This document shows positions 122 to 6,373 of a stretch of 6,373 nt of DNA, piece after piece; the stretch's first letter is position 1, and each line of letters starts with the position of its first letter. The stretch is taken from IMG/VR virus record IMGVR_UViG_3300020041_000064, positions 1-6,373 of that record; one strand, written 5' to 3'. The DNA is from a virus. The translations under genes were made by a program, and so were the position numbers. The notes under the pieces were generated by a model, which ran no database searches, was not told the DNA's origin, and was given only the letters and a program-made list of their open reading frames with translations.

Positions 122-1442
122 AAATTCCGAGGAAAAAGCGGTATAAGCGGGAAAGGCGATGAGAAGCTTCCAAATCAACACCATCGTACAAACGACATTC
201 AGTAAGAATAAGAATATCATCATGCGGTAAATCCGCTTTAGGAGAAAGTATATTTCGTTCATCATTTTCTTTATGATAATTGTCTACATAATTTAAATAA
301 AGCTTACAAAAAGACAAAATGCTCTGTTTGGATGAAGCATTTTCATTAAACGGATCACAAGTTAGATCAGCACATCCGCTACGAATGACTCGTTGGGGCG
401 CCGTGAACGCAGAATGTAATAGTTGATAAACACCCGATGGAAGTTCACGAACAGAGTCTGAAAATCGGGGGAATAATCGAAGGAGATACGGCCAAGTAGG
501 CTTAATTGTACGAAAATATCCATTGCGCTCAACGCGGACTCCATCAAGGCACTTATCGGCAACTTCATCAATTTCGGCAATTCGTACCTTTCGAGGAAAG
601 AGATTTGATTCTGTAAATCCAATGGAATGGAAGGACTTAGGTCGCACCACTTTTGGCATCTGAGTATAAAAGTCGGGTAAAGCGACAAAACTATTAACAT
701 ACGACGCAACATACGGTGCTGCGAATCCTCGCGAGAGTGACGCATCACAACGTCCGTAAGACCAAGCCTTAGATACATTTTCACAAACAGTTTGCGAGAA
801 TCGTTCGGAATCGGAAAACAATAACAAGTGCCAATGCGGGCGGAAACTGGTAGGGCCGTATTCTGATACAGCGTAGTAACGTAATTTTTCATCGGGGTAA
901 TAACTTCTTAAACGTTTTAAAAATAAATCAAGGTCACGATTACAGATATAAGGAATCCTATTAGGAACATCATGCCTAACCTTACCAAGAATATATAAAA
1001 GATCCTTAGATTTCATAGGACAAGAAAACCGAAATTCGGGATCCTTAAAAGTACGCTCAACAGTAGAACTCTTCAACTTGACAGAAGCGGAGCGAGGAAC
1101 GCTACGAAAACCAAACAGATAAGTATTAGGGTCACCAGCATCCAAGTCATCAATAGAGGGAACACAGGGTACATCCGCAATATCATCCGTACATGTTTCA
1201 ATAACGGAAACCTCCAAAGTAGGGAGAAAACAAGGTGCATAAGTAAGAGTAACAAAATATACGTAACGGAATTGGGCAGAATAAGAGGTGAGCAAATTTG
1301 TCTGAATCCCGGAACGACGAAGGATACAAGAAGGACAAGAACCACAAGACACAAGAACAGACTCGTGTGTATACTTGTTAACGACCGTACGAGGATTCTG
1401 ACAACGAGTCACTAACTTATTCTGTAATTCCTTAGTAATCAT
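1..1442 (-). CDS. VP4: Rolling-circle replication initiation protein (VP4/Rep, HUH endonuclease), N-terminal 480 codons; the ORF continues across the circular junction into 6252..5976
   Basis: The ATG at 1442-1440 overlaps the TGA of the upstream peptidase gene (ATGA). Hand translation of this frame is open from 1442 to base 1, and the last residues (..FLRIISEKIV) run into the 100-aa ORF at 5976..6278. The total is 1719 nt, or 572 aa. Motifs seen are a Cys cluster C14 and C33-G-S-C-P-S-C39 (1326-1346), RCR motif 1 YFVTLTY (1239-1259), HUH motif HWHLLLF (816-836) and the double-Tyr motif YVASYVN (693-713). As I recall it, the last resembles the phiX174 gpA active site YVAKYVNK. The ORF is absent from the track because it leaves the window. 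Confidence 0.9.
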   Translation of the reverse strand, partial: MITKELQNKLVTRCQNPRTVVNKYTHESVLVSCGSCPSCILRRSGIQTNLLTSYSAQFRYVYFVTLTYAPCFLPTLEVSVIETCTDDIADVPCVPSIDDLDAGDPNTYLFGFRSVPRSASVKLKSSTVERTFKDPEFRFSCPMKSKDLLYILGKVRHDVPNRIPYICNRDLDLFLKRLRSYYPDEKLRYYAVSEYGPTSFRPHWHLLLFSDSERFSQTVCENVSKAWSYGRCDASLSRGFAAPYVASYVNSFVALPDFYTQMPKVVRPKSFHSIGFTESNLFPRKVRIAEIDEVADKCLDGVRVERNGYFRTIKPTWPYLLRLFPRFSDSVRELPSGVYQLLHSAFTAPQRVIRSGCADLTCDPFNENASSKQSILSFCKLYLNYVDNYHKENDERNILSPKADLPHDDILILTECRLYDGVDLEASHRLSRLYRFFLGISKFIRTYSTDGCSELFWSSGSPGGALYGRDRFLRIISEKI

Positions 1443-1747
1443 TTTCTATCAACAAAATTAAGTTCCATTTGACGGGGGTTACGACCGCGAGCAAAGGAAA
1501 CATGAACAAATGTACGATATTTTATAAGCTGGTCAAATTTAAAGGAAGAACCTTTAATCTTCAAAATGAAGTCATCAACAGTAAAATCGATAGGCTTCAA
1601 ATCAATAGCGTCACCAGTCAAATGCTGAGAGGTTTTGGATCCATTACACGCATTATTCTGTTCTTCAGTACGATAAGCAGAAGTAACAGTGAAATGAATA
1701 TTCCGGCGGAGAAGCCACTCAACAAATTTCATCAATTCTGGATTCAT
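1439..1747 (-). CDS. Zn-dependent cell-wall peptidase, M15 family (Peptidase_M15_3 / D-Ala-D-Ala carboxypeptidase-like fold), 102 aa; putative endolysin
   Basis: The motif TSAYRTEEQN is followed by S40-Q-H42-L-T-G-D-A-I-D49 (1601-1630), which fits the SxHxxGxAxD zinc-binding signature of LAS/M15 peptidases. A distal FVH82VS (His at 1502-1504) could supply the third ligand. T-rich codon position 3 matches the other genes. The ATG lies 3 nt after the upstream stop, and the TGA overlaps the Rep ATG. Confidence 0.85.
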   Translation of the reverse strand: MNPELMKFVEWLLRRNIHFTVTSAYRTEEQNNACNGSKTSQHLTGDAIDLKPIDFTVDDFILKIKGSSFKFDQLIKYRTFVHVSFARGRNPRQMELNFVDRK

Positions 1748-1750
1748 GAC

Positions 1751-1840
1751 TTACGAAAATATTTGAGCAATAGACGTAAGAAGACTGACAGCAGCTGCAA
1801 TAATTGCAGACCAAATCTTAGATTTAGTTTCACTTTTCAT
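1751..1840 (-). CDS. 29-aa single-pass membrane peptide (MKSETKSKIWSAIIAAAVSLLTSIAQIFS); candidate holin-like partner of the peptidase
   Basis: It has an ATG start and a net +2 N-terminus (MKSETKSK), followed by a 20-residue uncharged hydrophobic stretch. About half of its codons end in T, like the confirmed genes. The stop TAA at 1753-1751 lies 3 nt before the peptidase ATG. Its small size keeps confidence moderate. Confidence 0.45.
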   Translation of the reverse strand: MKSETKSKIWSAIIAAAVSLLTSIAQIFS

Positions 1841-2027
1841 CTGGAATTGCTTTAAAGGTTGAACAATGAGAGACAATAAGAACACAATCAGGACGAAGAT
1901 GCGAAGAAACAAATTCGGAAATTTCATCAACGGGAACAAGAATGGTTTCGTTCTGATTGGGACTCGTTTTTGATTGAACGGAGCACAAATAATACTTTTC
2001 CATAAAAATAAAAGTTAAATTAGACAT
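1830..2027 (-). CDS. Hypothetical protein of 65 aa (57 aa if started at ATG 2003; 89 aa with a hydrophobic N-terminus if started at ATG 2099)
   Basis: The frame has a very strong T3 codon signature, e.g. att ctt gtt ccc gtt gat gaa att tcc gaa ttt gtt tct tcg cat ctt cgt cct gat tgt gtt ctt att. Its stop TGA at 1832-1830 overlaps the 29-aa ORF by 11 nt. I recognise no motif in it. Confidence 0.45.
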   Translation of the reverse strand: MSNLTFIFMEKYYLCSVQSKTSPNQNETILVPVDEISEFVSSHLRPDCVLIVSHCSTFKAIPDEK

Positions 2028-2044: not shown

Positions 2045-2077
2045 CAAAGATAAAAACAAACACTTTAAAAAAACAAA
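2045..2077 (-). promoter_or_regulatory. Candidate Bacteroides-type promoter: TTTG (2077-2074), 21-nt spacer, TATCTTTG (2052-2045)
   Basis: Read on the minus strand it is TTTG-tttttttaaagtgtttgtttt-TATCTTTG. This fits the -33 TTTG / -7 TAnnTTTG consensus described for Bacteroides sigma-A promoters. It sits 17 nt upstream of ATG 2027. The local sequence is AT-rich, so a chance match is possible. Confidence 0.3.
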
Positions 2078-2529: not shown

Positions 2530-3597
2530 TCAATGAGGTAAGAAATTACCTATAGTATTACCAATACTAGTTCCATAACCAACCCATTTATCAGCGTCAA
2601 AATATGAATGCTTTTTCTTTTCATTTCTGGAACGATACCATTCTTCAATATTCTTACTGCGAGCATTATCTTGAGGAAGACCCAATCTAAGCTCCTCATT
2701 ATGAAAAGCGGCAGAAGACTGATTAGCCGCAATATTAGCGGCAATCTGAGACTCAGCAATACGAGAGGCAATCCCATTAGAAATAACCTGGCCACGAGCA
2801 CGAGCAGCAGCAAGAGCTTCCTCAGCTAGAGCCTTTTTAGCCTCAGCATAAGAAAGATATCCAGAAGCCATACGTTGATAATAATCCGCAGCCTTAACAT
2901 TCAAATCAAGTTGTTGTTGCTGATCAAGATACTTATTCATAACACCTTTAGCCTCATTATCAAGAAGCATACCAGCATGCTGAGCGCGCATAACAAGACC
3001 AGTCATTGCCATGTTGTCAACTTCCTGCTGTTCCTTAGCATAACCAAGCTGGGCACGTGCTAATCCAGTAGACCGCATATAATCACGAGCTTCATCAGTA
3101 AGTTTTCCCCAATCAACATTGGAAAGGATCTCCATAGCCTTGGCATCAGCAAGCTGTCTGGCTCCTTGCATTTGTGACTTTTCAGACTGCATAAGCTCAT
3201 ATTGAAAAACATTACCAATAGAAGAACCAATGCCGGAATAATCCGCCTGGAAAGGCTGCATGACAGCAGAACCGGCAGAAGAGGCAGCAGCACCAGTACC
3301 GACAGACTGGGCAGAACCAGCAGAACCACCATTCATCATCAGATAAGGATTCAAACCAGCTTCTTCGAGGCGTTGACGTTGCGCGGAGGCAGTATTATAT
3401 GCGTTTTCCTTGTTCCACATATTTTCCTGGAAATCGCGCTGCTGCATTGCCATACGCTCGTTAAACTGATTATTCATCTGATTTATCTTATAATTCATCT
3501 GGTTAGTCTCCCGGACATTTTGTCTGTTCTGCGAATTCTGAATAGCAGAAGAACCAACACCAAGGAGACCACCAGCGATTGAACCAAGAAGACCCAT
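2530..3597 (-). CDS. VP2: DNA pilot / minor capsid protein VP2, 355 aa
   Basis: It has a Gly-rich hydrophobic N-terminus (MGLLGSIAGGLLGVGSS) and a Q/N/M-rich coiled region. The motif QRQRLEEAGLNPYLM is one I recognise as typical of non-phiX microvirus VP2 proteins. An Ala/Gln-rich helical C-terminal half follows. The start ATG shares one base with the upstream stop (TAATG at 3599-3595). Confidence 0.85.
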   Translation of the reverse strand: MGLLGSIAGGLLGVGSSAIQNSQNRQNVRETNQMNYKINQMNNQFNERMAMQQRDFQENMWNKENAYNTASAQRQRLEEAGLNPYLMMNGGSAGSAQSVGTGAAASSAGSAVMQPFQADYSGIGSSIGNVFQYELMQSEKSQMQGARQLADAKAMEILSNVDWGKLTDEARDYMRSTGLARAQLGYAKEQQEVDNMAMTGLVMRAQHAGMLLDNEAKGVMNKYLDQQQQLDLNVKAADYYQRMASGYLSYAEAKKALAEEALAAARARGQVISNGIASRIAESQIAANIAANQSSAAFHNEELRLGLPQDNARSKNIEEWYRSRNEKKKHSYFDADKWVGYGTSIGNTIGNFLPH

Positions 3598-4079
3598 TAT
3601 TCAGAGGAAGCAGCATCAGCGGGAGCAGCAACCGCTTTTTCTGCCTCTTGTTTAGCGTTTTCAGCATCAATCAATTCCTGAGCCTGAACTTCAAGATTTT
3701 GAGCATAAGCCGACAACTCCTTAGACCAAGCAATAATCTCAGAAGGAGCCTGGACATACCGAGAACGAACCGTCGCCAAAAGATCATCATCAGACATTCC
3801 GTCCATAATCTGCTGAATCTGAGAAGCGGGCCGATTGCCTTGGCCAAACTTGGAAGCGACAGAAATACCGGCACGGGAAGCCAAGTCCTTAGAATGAAGA
3901 ATCAGATGGATATCAGAAGTATAACGCACCGGACAAGTCTCTTCATTATCATAAATTTCAACTCGAAGCTGTTCGGTAGAATCAAACTCGGGAGCAACTG
4001 CAAAAACATCCGGAGAAACATCGGGAACAAGTCCGGAACCTGGTTCCAAACTTTTCAGAGAATTAAATTTTCCTATCAT
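3597..4079 (-). CDS. 160-aa acidic protein between VP1 and VP2; putative internal scaffolding protein (VP3-like)
   Basis: It has an ATG start 11 nt after the VP1 stop, a T3 codon signature, an acidic Ala/Glu-rich C-terminus and a size typical of VP3. The function is assigned from position and size only. Confidence 0.65.
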   Translation of the reverse strand: MIGKFNSLKSLEPGSGLVPDVSPDVFAVAPEFDSTEQLRVEIYDNEETCPVRYTSDIHLILHSKDLASRAGISVASKFGQGNRPASQIQQIMDGMSDDDLLATVRSRYVQAPSEIIAWSKELSAYAQNLEVQAQELIDAENAKQEAEKAVAAPADAASSE

Positions 4080-4090
4080 AATTAAAAACT

Positions 4091-5956
4091 TTAGTAAGGT
4101 ACACCATCACGAGACAAATTACGGGCAACATAGCAACCGATATAAGAGTTAACCAACAATTGGTCAGTATCCCAGGTAGAATCAGCGTTCACACCAAAAA
4201 TCGGGTCAAGAACAGAAGGATTGACCTTGAAAAACTTGTAATTCAAACCAACTTTAGTCACCGGATCGGGAGTAGAACCGCCAAAACGGGCCCAGCCAGA
4301 AAGCAAGGAATCAGTTACAGGAGAAACCCAAGATTTTAAAGTAGTAGTAAACGCGCCGTTAATGACATCAAGCTTAGTCTTCCAATTGAAATAACGGGGA
4401 TTATAACCGGCATTAAACAGATTGAAAGCAGTAGCAAGTGAAGAATTAAAAATCTGCGTCATAGGAAGCGTTTCCATGCCAATATTATCAAACTCCGGAA
4501 TCGGGAGAGACTCAGCATCGGTAACAAGCAACTGGCCATCCTGTCCGGTAATGGAATAATCAAGCAAAGGAACGGCATGATAGATACACATAACGACACA
4601 ATGTTCGTCAGTAGTATAAGTGAAAGAACCGTTTCCTGCACCGACACCCTTACCGGCAATAACAGCAGTATCACCTTCAGTAGCAAGGTTATTGTTCACA
4701 ACCTCACTGATATCAAGGTTACGGGAAATACCACCGATATAGGTACACATATTAGAAAGAGCCTGGGGCAGTTTCACGCCAAAGTGCTTGCGAATCTGTT
4801 CACGATAGTCGGAGTCTCCGGACTGACTGATTTCCTTCCAACGCTGAAGGGCTTCGGCCTGGCGAAGAGCAAGAACAGTAAATTGATTCTGCAAACCAGA
4901 AAGGTCAACTTGAAGAGTAGAACCAGAAAGAATAACGTTAGAAGTAGAAGCGTCTTTGGCCGAGAAAGATATCGGGGTAAGAGGAGCATTATAAGAACCC
5001 GCAGTAGCAACCTCAGAAGTAGCATTACCGCTTGAACTCTTTAAAAATACAGAAGGAGAAACAACACCATCAGTATTTAAAAGATTAATTATAGCAACAT
5101 CTCCAAACTGGGAATTCGGAAGAACACCCATCAGCATGTCCTTGTTCCAGTTACAATATTTGAGGTCAAACATTGTGTCAGATTTCCAATAATCAGATTT
5201 ATCGGAAGGAATAGAATCAAAAGGAATGAAATCGGGAGAAATTCCAGAAAAGTAATCAACATTATAAGAAGAAGGATTAGAATTTTCCCATTGAGACCAA
5301 CGGAAGAAATCCTGGTAAATCTTCTGATAAGCAAGAATAGGGAATATATTCACAACGTTATTCTGAGAATACTGTTGAGAAAAACTTGCTGCATCATCAT
5401 TATTCACTAAAGAAGTAGACCACCAACGATTGCCAGAAGTAGGGACAGAAGACACAAAGTTTCCATAACCAAGATAAGACAAAAGTTTAAAAGACAAATC
5501 TCCTCGGAAAAAACCAAACGAATTTTTAAAACCAGAAGAATTTCCGGGATTAGGAGAAGTTCCATTAAGCCGATAAGGGAAATAGAACAAAGAAGACAAA
5601 GGCAAAGAAGGAAGATAAGTACCCAAAGACAAATTCTGTGTCAAAGACAGGGCCTGGATCTGATTAACATCCTGCATTTGAGTCAACACAGAAGGAGCAG
5701 ATTTCCAGAGAAGGCGCAACGGCACAGCATAGAAATCAAAATACTCACGCAACCGGGTATAAGCAGAAGTCTCAACGGGCTGAGTACGAGTAAAATACTC
5801 AACATTGAACTTATACTTATCACCAGGCATAGAAATATCCCAGTAAACAGGAAGAAGCTCACCAACTTTTGCGGTAAACGCATTTTTACGTCCAATATCA
5901 AATCCAGAACGGTGAGGATGATTCTGAAGATTGGACATCCCGGTGTAAGAAGCCAT
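4091..5956 (-). CDS. VP1: Major capsid protein VP1 (F-like jelly-roll capsid protein), 621 aa
   Basis: This is the largest ORF. Its N-terminus HPHRSGFDIGRKNAFTAKVGELLPVYWDISMPGDKY..YTRLREYFDFYAVPLRLLW matches the conserved start of Microviridae VP1 as I recall it, with AFTAKVGELLP resembling Alpavirinae. It has a very strong T3 codon bias and ends in TAA at 4093-4091. Confidence 0.93.
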   Translation of the reverse strand: MASYTGMSNLQNHPHRSGFDIGRKNAFTAKVGELLPVYWDISMPGDKYKFNVEYFTRTQPVETSAYTRLREYFDFYAVPLRLLWKSAPSVLTQMQDVNQIQALSLTQNLSLGTYLPSLPLSSLFYFPYRLNGTSPNPGNSSGFKNSFGFFRGDLSFKLLSYLGYGNFVSSVPTSGNRWWSTSLVNNDDAASFSQQYSQNNVVNIFPILAYQKIYQDFFRWSQWENSNPSSYNVDYFSGISPDFIPFDSIPSDKSDYWKSDTMFDLKYCNWNKDMLMGVLPNSQFGDVAIINLLNTDGVVSPSVFLKSSSGNATSEVATAGSYNAPLTPISFSAKDASTSNVILSGSTLQVDLSGLQNQFTVLALRQAEALQRWKEISQSGDSDYREQIRKHFGVKLPQALSNMCTYIGGISRNLDISEVVNNNLATEGDTAVIAGKGVGAGNGSFTYTTDEHCVVMCIYHAVPLLDYSITGQDGQLLVTDAESLPIPEFDNIGMETLPMTQIFNSSLATAFNLFNAGYNPRYFNWKTKLDVINGAFTTTLKSWVSPVTDSLLSGWARFGGSTPDPVTKVGLNYKFFKVNPSVLDPIFGVNADSTWDTDQLLVNSYIGCYVARNLSRDGVPY

Positions 5957-5975: not shown

Positions 5976-6373
5976 TTAAACAATACCAGGCTCATTCTGA
6001 TAAGAAAAAATACCAGACAAATCATTAAACCTCTTATGTTTGACCTTATCTCGACATTTCATCAATGCCGCAGCGGCCAAGCGACGAACAAGAGGTAGTT
6101 TATGGTAAGGTTCTTCCTTATTCTCGGGAAGCCTGTTATAACGGAAAGAATAATTACGAATCTCAAAGTCAACCAAATCCTTGTCATCAGAAACTTCCAG
6201 GGTCTGATAAAAATCGACAAGACGATTGTAATCGTAACGACTCCAAAAATTGACTATTTTCTCGGATATAATACGCAAGAACCTGTCTCGGCCATAGAGC
6301 GCTCCTCCTGGAGAGCCGCTGGACCAGAAGAGCTCTGAGCATCCATCTGTTGAATATGTTCGAATAAATTTAG
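5976..6373 (-). CDS. VP4: Rep (VP4) C-terminal part; 6253-6373 duplicates 1-121, and the unique continuation is 6252..5976 with stop TAA at 5978-5976
   Basis: It is in the same frame as 1..1442 (6252 is divisible by 3) and is open from the window edge to 5976. The track reports it as a 100-aa ORF starting at an internal TTG (6278), which is Leu473 of Rep. Confidence 0.88.
   Translation of the reverse strand, partial: KFIRTYSTDGCSELFWSSGSPGGALYGRDRFLRIISEKIVNFWSRYDYNRLVDFYQTLEVSDDKDLVDFEIRNYSFRYNRLPENKEEPYHKLPLVRRLAAAALMKCRDKVKHKRFNDLSGIFSYQNEPGIV
6253..6373. repeat. Right copy of the exact 121-nt terminal redundancy
   Basis: This is the same string as 1-121. It lies inside the Rep coding frame, so it is an artefact of linearising a circle and not a biological repeat. 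Confidence 0.97.

Follow-up and report, generated by a model that had tools for sequence, protein, structure and literature searches.

Background

Does a very small membrane peptide encoded directly upstream of an M15 peptidase take part in host lysis by a microvirus, and is the open reading frame (ORF) that would encode it a gene at all? Microviruses outside the phiX174 group are among the most abundant phages of the mammalian gut. Within the microviruses, phiX174 alone has an established lysis mechanism; the M15 peptidase that others carry has been put forward as an endolysin, with no partner named (PMC3394797, PMC9239249). Roux et al. (2012), who made this proposal, reported that 5 of 11 such peptidase genes adjoin an 'unknown' ORF and did not raise the idea of a transmembrane (TM) protein or holin (PMC3394797), Kirchberger et al. 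(2022) treated the peptidases as lysis-associated accessory genes and explicitly omitted small and overprinted genes (PMC9239249), and the papers on Occultatumvirinae and Sulfitobacter mention a peptidase or lysis proteins only. In the literature on Microviridae that we searched for holins, transmembrane proteins and single-gene lysis, a peptide or TM partner for the M15 peptidase was not found described, in agreement with an earlier note on this DNA, which was not aware of an experimental description of such a cassette for Microviridae. The conserved family of 26-32-aa peptides reported below, and its independence from the peptidase, are absent from both PMC3394797 and PMC9239249.

The DNA analysed here (the window, i.e. 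the whole stretch of 6,373 nt) covers one full circular microvirus genome, 6252 nt in length, with an exact terminal redundancy of 121 nt (1-121 = 6253-6373). The earlier note had suggested that a 29-aa ORF located 3 nt upstream of the peptidase encodes a minimal holin-like peptide, and that the two genes form a lysis cassette of about 400 nt. By means of comparative analysis of related genomes we find that the ORF is a conserved gene and a good candidate for a lysis gene, although its association with the peptidase is not a strict one.

Genome organization

All genes of the window lie on the minus strand (Table 1). Megablast recovered GenBank genomes of about 84% identity that originate from animal faeces, namely Dulem virus 257 and 236 and the bajarodmic viruses 410 and 1134. 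The 57-aa ORF that precedes the small ORF has no Pfam or PHROG match, and the record of Dulem virus 257, in which the small ORF has no annotation, lists its product as hypothetical. The translation of positions 1436-1945 (minus strand) reads ...QFQ MKSETKSKIWSAIIAAAVSLLTSIAQIFS, a stop, V and then MNPELMKF..., where MKSETKSKIWSAIIAAAVSLLTSIAQIFS is the 29-aa product of the small ORF. The coordinates and the 3-nt gap given in the earlier note were thus confirmed by translation, and the length of the putative cassette amounts to 402 nt (90+3+309). The codon signature ascribed to the small ORF was also recovered, in that its third-position T frequency (0.53) falls within the range of the other genes (0.50-0.57).

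Table 1. Features of the window around and beyond the small ORF
Feature	Position	Strand	Remarks
VP1	4091-5956	-	Pfam Phage_F
Scaffold-like ORF	3597-4079	-	
Pilot-like ORF	2530-3597	-	
Bacteroides-type promoter-like motif (TTTG ... TAnnTTTG)	2045-2077	-	about 40 nt upstream of the 57-aa ORF
57-aa ORF (MEKYYLC...PDEK, stop)	1830-2003	-	3' end shares 11 nt with the start of the small ORF
Small membrane-peptide ORF	1751-1840	-	29 codons + TAA; ATG 1840-1838, TAA 1753-1751
Basic head MKSETKSK, codons 1-8	1817-1840	-	net +2; predicted cytoplasmic by the positive-inside rule
Predicted single TM helix IWSAIIAAAVSLLTSIAQIFS, codons 9-29	1754-1816	-	reaches the C-terminus; segregated small/polar stripe
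3-nt spacer GTC	1748-1750	-	from small-ORF stop to peptidase ATG (1747-1745); both ORFs in one frame here
Peptidase_M15_3 gene, 102 aa	1439-1747	-	Pfam
Second Bacteroides-type promoter-like motif	1507-1565	-	within the peptidase gene, upstream of Rep
Rep	ATG from 1442	-	overlaps the peptidase TGA stop as ATGA

The pattern TTTG ... TAnnTTTG, which we take to be the Bacteroides promoter consensus, has three matches in the window against 0.36 expected, and the match ahead of the 57-aa ORF is a possible promoter for the string that runs from the 57-aa ORF via the small ORF and the peptidase to Rep. A scan for sigma-70 promoters and terminators found no terminator-like site between the small ORF and the peptidase. 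Further upstream, a non-coding block (2050-2445) is 84% conserved with the right end of a related prophage (L051, see below) and could be an origin or att region; the G+C content peaks within it (0.505 at about 2200-2400, against 0.30-0.49 in the other 200-nt bins). The fold of positions 2105-2450 (z = -1.67) is unremarkable for a structured RNA, and an Rfam scan of the whole window gave no match.

The small ORF is a gene

To represent the close relatives (clade 1), 37 IMG/VR genomes with 73-89% peptidase identity were retrieved via the peptidase only, so that the set is unbiased with regard to the small ORF. The ORF is intact, with 29 codons, in 36 of them. The sole disrupted close copy (L005) combines a GAA to TAA change in codon 4 with a 9-nt duplication in the TM segment, next to an intact peptidase, and could stem from a defective genome or an assembly error. 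Loss of the ORF in close relatives that keep the peptidase, which the earlier note would have held against its proposal, is thus limited to 1 of the 37, whereas among more distant peptidase-bearing genomes the ORF is lacking in two (mar63 and phiHBP1, see below). The exact peptide MKSETKSKIWSAIIAAAVSLLTSIAQIFS is moreover public as 'hypothetical protein [Microviridae sp.]' on 49 contigs.

The 37 intact copies comprise 30 different nucleotide sequences and 12 different peptides. Their variable sites are distributed 7/3/19 over the three codon positions, and the pN/pS ratio is 0.096 as compared to 0.25 for the peptidase; the other five frames of the region give ratios above 1 or contain stops. 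The spacer between the stop of the small ORF and the ATG of the peptidase measures 3, 9, 13, 16 or 21 nt and consists of TCGTAA-type copies: six genomes (L002, L010, L012, L013, L015 and L026) have 1-3 additional hexamers of this type, which include the stop codon, and spacers of 9-21 nt. As the spacer length varies, the frame that both ORFs share in the window is not conserved.

A second clade (Dulem virus 238, 243, 255 and 226, and mar56), the peptidases of which are only 47-55% identical to that of the window, has a homologous ORF of 26-29 aa at the same position (for instance MKSNNIWKIIIGAVSAALGYILNSIGL), the TGA stop of which overlaps the peptidase ATG as ATGA. This ORF is intact in 48 of the 48 IMG/VR genomes that were retrieved via the clade-2 peptidase (L075 starts with GTG), with variable sites distributed 9/3/23 and a pN/pS of 0.135. 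The peptides of clades 1 and 2 have a common layout, namely MK(S)-x-(I/L)W-x-x-(I/V)I-(A/G)A. A third set, formed by nine clade-2 genomes without a peptidase (see below), yields 6/2/16 and a pN/pS of 0.129. The binomial P of the third-position excess is 4e-4 in clade 1 and ranges from 1e-4 to 9e-4 across the three sets.

Given the conservation and the codon-position statistics in 37 + 46 related genomes, the small ORF is to be seen as a coding gene under purifying selection, and on this comparative evidence we consider it practically certain that the gene is genuine. The earlier note listed among its own alternatives that there may be no gene at all. Conservation for a nucleic-acid reason, or via the overlap with the 57-aa ORF, would suit the pS of the small ORF, which is lower than that of the peptidase (0.24 against 0.46), the 11 nt at its start that overlap the 57-aa ORF and its absence from most GenBank and IMG annotations; it has next to no probability in the face of the third-position bias, the pN/pS of 0.10-0.14 in three datasets with other frames above 1 or with stops, and the persistence of length, start and stop across clades with such divergent peptidases. 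The selection statistics thereby reject the no-gene alternative.

Properties of the encoded peptide

The peptide consists of a basic head and a hydrophobic stretch that extends to its end. The N-terminal 10 residues carry a net charge of +2 and the last 8 residues a charge of 0, which on the positive-inside rule supports the N-in single-pass topology predicted by the earlier note. The stretch at residues 9-29 is indeed hydrophobic, if only marginally so for stable insertion: the best 17-residue window has a Kyte-Doolittle value of 2.05 and the summed dG on the Hessa scale is about +0.1 kcal/mol, i.e. close to 0. The stretch contains 45% A/G/S/T, its hydrophobic moment of 0.36 is matched by 0.1% of shuffled sequences, and a small/polar stripe at TM positions 3, 7, 10/11, 14, 18 and 21 is common to clades 1 and 2.

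A holin is in general a small phage membrane protein with at least one TM domain, and the peptide, with one predicted TM helix of borderline hydrophobicity, conforms to this description. It does not have the charged hydrophilic cytoplasmic C-terminal domain of holins, since it ends in the TM helix (...IAQIFS, stop). Searches against holin families gave no Pfam match, and the best PHROG hits were the holin families phrog_443 and phrog_4712, at E = 0.13 and over the TM segment only; likewise there was no Pfam or PHROG match to single-gene lysis proteins (E, LysM, L). Two other assignments were considered and discarded. A DNA-binding protein like J of phiX174 or VP8 of gokushoviruses does not fit a peptide with a net charge of only +2 and 21 of its 29 residues in a hydrophobic helix (J-type proteins being very basic, non-hydrophobic small virion proteins), and a lipoprotein or spanin does not fit a peptide without Cys.

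The M15 peptidase

The downstream gene matches Pfam Peptidase_M15_3 (PF08291; 1.7e-11, 44.6 bits against a cut-off of 23.2) and PHROG 894, 'endolysin' (1e-18). Only profile positions 42-108 are covered and the protein is therefore a truncated, minimal form of the family, namely a minimal LAS-type zinc peptidase: beside the profile match it has the zinc-ligand motif H-x(3-6)-D ... H, with SQHLTGDAID as well as the distal H82 unchanged across 22 homologs. No signal peptide and no TM segment were found in the protein, which starts with MNPELMKF. Its AF2 model (pLDDT 78.5) has LAS zinc peptidases and phage endolysins as best, albeit weak, PDB folds (E 0.03-0.2), among which 1lbu, LysECD7, ChiX and the T5 endolysin (E 0.03-0.1); the T5 endolysin is also the PDB match at the sequence level, again a weak one.

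The window peptidase belongs to the same horizontally acquired M15_3 group as the M15 genes described before for Microviridae (PMC3394797, PMC9239249). Homologous enzymes (M15_3, PHROG 894) of the Bacteroides dsDNA phages BS-TP3 and UZM3 are annotated as endolysins, and the gene that precedes them encodes an annotated holin of 158 aa in BS-TP3 and an unannotated protein of 163 aa in UZM3.

Association between peptide and peptidase

The pairing of the two genes was counted by scanning IMG/VR with degenerate patterns for the clade-1 and clade-2 peptide motifs. The clade-1 motif occurs on 62 contigs, with the peptidase motif directly downstream in all 62, and the clade-2 motif on at least 119 microvirus contigs, with the peptidase downstream in 110 of 119 among the matches listed. 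Adjacency to the endolysin, as expected for a holin gene, is therefore the rule (a 3-nt gap in the window, and the counts just given among the matches listed), and with no terminator-like site in between co-transcription is putative.

In the other nine clade-2 contigs among the matches listed, the peptide gene is followed by a conserved, AT-rich spacer of 51-61 nt and then by Rep. No peptidase was found anywhere on these nine contigs by tblastn with eight diverse M15 queries and by a motif scan (positive control 1e-51), and at least four or five of them have full sets of VP1, VP2, VP3 and Rep. VP1 is intact in L244, L261, L264 and L294, and split in two ORFs in L238, L277, L286 and L320, by frameshifts or assembly errors. 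The spacer was also considered as a scar of a deleted peptidase gene, for which comparison by eye revealed no similarity. The synonymous divergence of the peptide gene in these genomes (pS 0.43) is comparable to that of Rep, at the low pN/pS given above. Since it is kept under purifying selection where no peptidase is present, the peptide has a function of its own. Six more distant relatives without a peptidase were sampled. Two of these, L323 and L327, have a comparable TM ORF (26 and 32 aa, respectively) immediately upstream of Rep that is missing from the annotation; the other four have no such ORF.

The reverse situation exists as well. Both mar63 and phiHBP1, a cultured microvirus of Bacteroides fragilis (PMC13064476), have an M15 peptidase and lack the mini-TM ORF. 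In mar63 (L053 / L141) the corresponding position (L053, 1086-1208) is taken by an amphipathic, basic ORF of 40 aa, MKRFLYELKRLLPLLKQVYPLIKSLLSACVRYLKNRRKNE, which is nested in a 58-aa gene in a different frame. In phiHBP1 (L337, PV598014), the genes of which are annotated as hypothetical except for VP1, a full-length M15 peptidase (tblastn 6e-28 to the peptidase of bajarodmic 66) follows Rep and is itself followed, with an ATGA overlap, by a non-TM ORF of 71 aa. This phage offers a culturable system for testing the peptidase.

In other lineages the order is changed. A full-length M15 peptidase comes after Rep in L059, L062, L063 and L065, and an ORF of 26-30 aa with a basic N-terminus and a C-terminal TM segment lies directly downstream of it; L061 has a 68-aa ORF between the peptidase and the mini-TM ORF. 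The mini-TM ORFs of L063 and L065 differ at 6/2/18 sites by codon position. A short TM ORF immediately upstream of the M15 gene is thus conserved within clades 1 and 2; in the other lineages named the ORF is found downstream and in the two genomes mentioned it is absent. The idea of a two-gene cassette likewise stands in part: the tight packing (the 3-nt gap, the ATGA in clade 2) and the co-occurrence of mini-TM ORFs with M15 genes in several lineages speak for it, but the pair is not obligate, with the peptide alone in nine plus two genomes and the peptidase alone in two. Because each occurs alone, strict holin-endolysin dependence can be excluded.

With the window peptide as query, tblastn gave no match in the phage collection, probably due to low-complexity masking, whereas the clade-2 peptide as query did match; a scan of IMG/VR with the peptidase of RodF8_10 yielded no close microvirus relatives. 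Within a 125-kb IMG/VR dsDNA phage (L041, 2737-3367), a full-length M15 peptidase gene is preceded, at a distance of 3 nt, by a TM ORF of 31 aa (MKAVLLLLIIYAAVIFGRFVCSEWKFNKKKK) and a lipoprotein-like ORF overlaps the 3' end, so that the locus looks like a compact lysis cassette of a Bacteroidota-type phage.

Host and lysogeny

One relative, which has the identical peptide and a peptidase of 85% identity, is present as a prophage (L051, 9335-15900) that is integrated in an 89-kb contig. The flanking GyrA is 89-91% identical to the GyrA of Bacteroides, and as the prophage is integrated beside this gene, its host can be taken to be Bacteroides, hence Gram-negative, and the phage to be temperate. 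The prophage is located between a TPR gene and a Usp gene, and the junction between the circular and the linear form corresponds to about position 2016-2050 of the window. A scan of GTDB genomes with the peptidase retrieved distant homologs only and no close prophage.

Relation to known lysis systems and toxins

The locus resembles the holin-endolysin cassettes of other phages (e.g. BS-TP3, with gp14 as holin and gp15 as M15 endolysin, or S and R of lambda) in that the gene for a small membrane protein lies beside a co-oriented gene for a muralytic enzyme that lacks an export signal. Characterised holins measure about 60-220 aa, and the window peptide differs from them in its 29 aa (against 158 aa for the holin of BS-TP3), its one C-terminal TM helix and its lack of a charged tail; it also differs from the cassettes in that peptide and peptidase each occur alone in related genomes. 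Like the single-gene lysis (Sgl) proteins, of which E of phiX174 (91 aa) inhibits MraY and LysM of phage M (37 aa) inhibits MurJ, the peptide is very small, has a single TM segment, belongs to a phage with a minimal genome and is kept without a muralytic enzyme, but it has no sequence similarity to them, is not overprinted and usually goes together with a peptidase. It has a weakly hydrophobic, Ala/Gly/Ser/Thr-rich helix with a stripe of small residues in common with the pinholin and SAR systems (S21-68 and R21 of phage 21, Lyz of P1). Pinholins have two TM domains, however, and the SAR domain is a covalent part of the endolysin, whereas the TM peptide here is encoded by a separate cistron in a frame that is not conserved. 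Type I toxins such as TisB (29 aa) and Hok are of the same size class and single-TM architecture; they are membrane-depolarising products of chromosomal or plasmid toxin-antitoxin genes with control by antisense RNA and a different layout of charges, and the window peptide, encoded in a phage operon, has no homology to them.

Proposed role

The gene is real and conserved, its position and coupling hold, the peptidase has no export signal and the host is Gram-negative. Membrane insertion, topology and oligomerisation of the peptide, and any role in lysis, are what we infer on top of this. Our preferred reading, to which we would assign a probability of roughly 0.45, is that the peptide is a membrane-acting component of lysis, holin-like where it accompanies, as in the window, a peptidase without a signal. 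We say that it works like a holin, not that it is a holin, because it belongs to no described holin or Sgl family and has no charged C-terminal tail. In this scheme the 57-aa ORF, the peptide, the peptidase and Rep would be made from one translationally packed string. The peptide would insert with its basic head in the cytoplasm and its small-residue-rich helix across the membrane (N-in/C-out), presumably post-translationally since the whole peptide fits in the ribosome tunnel, would accumulate in the inner membrane and could self-associate via the small/polar face of the helix. Late in infection it would compromise the membrane, and the lesion would allow the signal-less M15 peptidase of 102 aa (12 kDa) to reach the murein; where the peptidase is lacking, the peptide would damage the membrane itself, perhaps with the help of host autolysins. 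As it is kept under selection in such genomes, the peptide probably has a lytic or membrane-damaging activity of its own, possibly sufficient alone.

The purifying selection in three independent sets (clade 1, clade 2 and the peptidase-less genomes) is consistent with this role, and so is, by analogy, the annotation of the M15 homologs of Bacteroides dsDNA phages as endolysins beside holin genes. Several properties argue against it, i.e. a size of less than half that of characterised holins, the absence of their charged tail, the lack of significant similarity to holin or lysis families and a hydrophobicity at the limit for stable insertion. Moreover, where a genome of 6 kb offers few slots for accessory genes, adjacency is weaker evidence than it would be in large phages.

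A wider proposition is slightly more tentative still, namely that the peptides of 26-32 aa are a new family of minimal lysis effectors that might represent the missing lysis gene of Alpavirinae-like gut microviruses, acting alone or with a captured, truncated M15 endolysin. It would make a candidate lysis gene of a tiny, strongly conserved and mostly unannotated membrane peptide that is present in at least 180 IMG/VR contigs. The peptides would, if this is true, be smaller than any holin-like or stand-alone lysis protein known so far and set a new lower size limit for such proteins, and, if lytic, they might serve as a minimal lysis module in the engineering of Bacteroides.

Alternative roles

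The strongest competitor, doubtful as it is, holds that the peptide acts in the membrane outside lysis: in superinfection exclusion or another lysogen function, as a modulator of burst size like K of phiX174, or as a tether for replication or assembly near Rep. That the phages are temperate, with a prophage in a Bacteroides chromosome, would be in line with such a role, as would the occurrence of the peptide independently of the peptidase, the absence of homology to lysis families in PHROG and the observation that, across lineages, it is most constantly located immediately 5' of either Rep or the peptidase. Yet the gene is part of a packed, co-oriented string with the lytic-cycle genes for the peptidase and Rep, with overlapping stops and starts, other lineages have both peptide and peptidase moved beyond Rep, and an amphipathic TM helix with small residues is typical of pore-forming or lysis peptides.

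We regard it as unlikely that the peptide is a single-gene lysis protein whose TM helix binds and blocks a membrane enzyme that makes or exports murein precursors (MraY, MurJ or a Bacteroides equivalent), with the peptidase as a later, dispensable accessory that speeds up lysis. Such a peptide would explain the purifying selection in genomes that have no peptidase and no room for another enzyme, as well as the similar ORFs just 5' of Rep in the peptidase-less L323 and L327; a conserved helix face is also expected of a helix that binds a target, and very small Sgl proteins with one TM segment are known from small phages (PMC12506998, 10.1101/2023.10.16.562596). Against this, the peptide is not homologous to E, LysM or other Sgls, the gene is free-standing instead of overprinted, and about 95% of the genomes among the matches listed have an adjoining muralytic enzyme, which would be superfluous for an amurin.

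That the peptide is the signal-anchor-release domain of a split or recoded SAR endolysin, joined by readthrough or reinitiation, is very improbable: the single frame of both ORFs in the window with only TAA GTC between them, and a composition (45% A/G/S/T, borderline hydrophobicity) that resembles SAR domains, are outweighed by the loss of the common frame in L002, L015 and L026, where the spacers measure 13 and 16 nt, the additional in-frame TAA copies, the out-of-frame ATGA overlap in clade 2, and the location of the peptide downstream of the peptidase or without any peptidase in other genomes. Membership of the SAR endolysins was accordingly discarded, with a stop codon between the ORFs, the frame broken in relatives and a peptidase that has no TM segment.

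Implications for annotation

Small phages can have core functional genes among their ORFs at or below the usual cut-off of 30 codons. The small ORF of clade 2 is not annotated in GenBank, and the peptidase CDS of Dulem virus 238, 243 and 226 (L054, L055 and L057) starts 63 nt, i.e. 21 codons, too early (1138-1200). The added codons show little conservation and coincide, in a different frame, with the conserved small TM ORF; the finding of this ORF corrects the mis-annotated peptidase starts.
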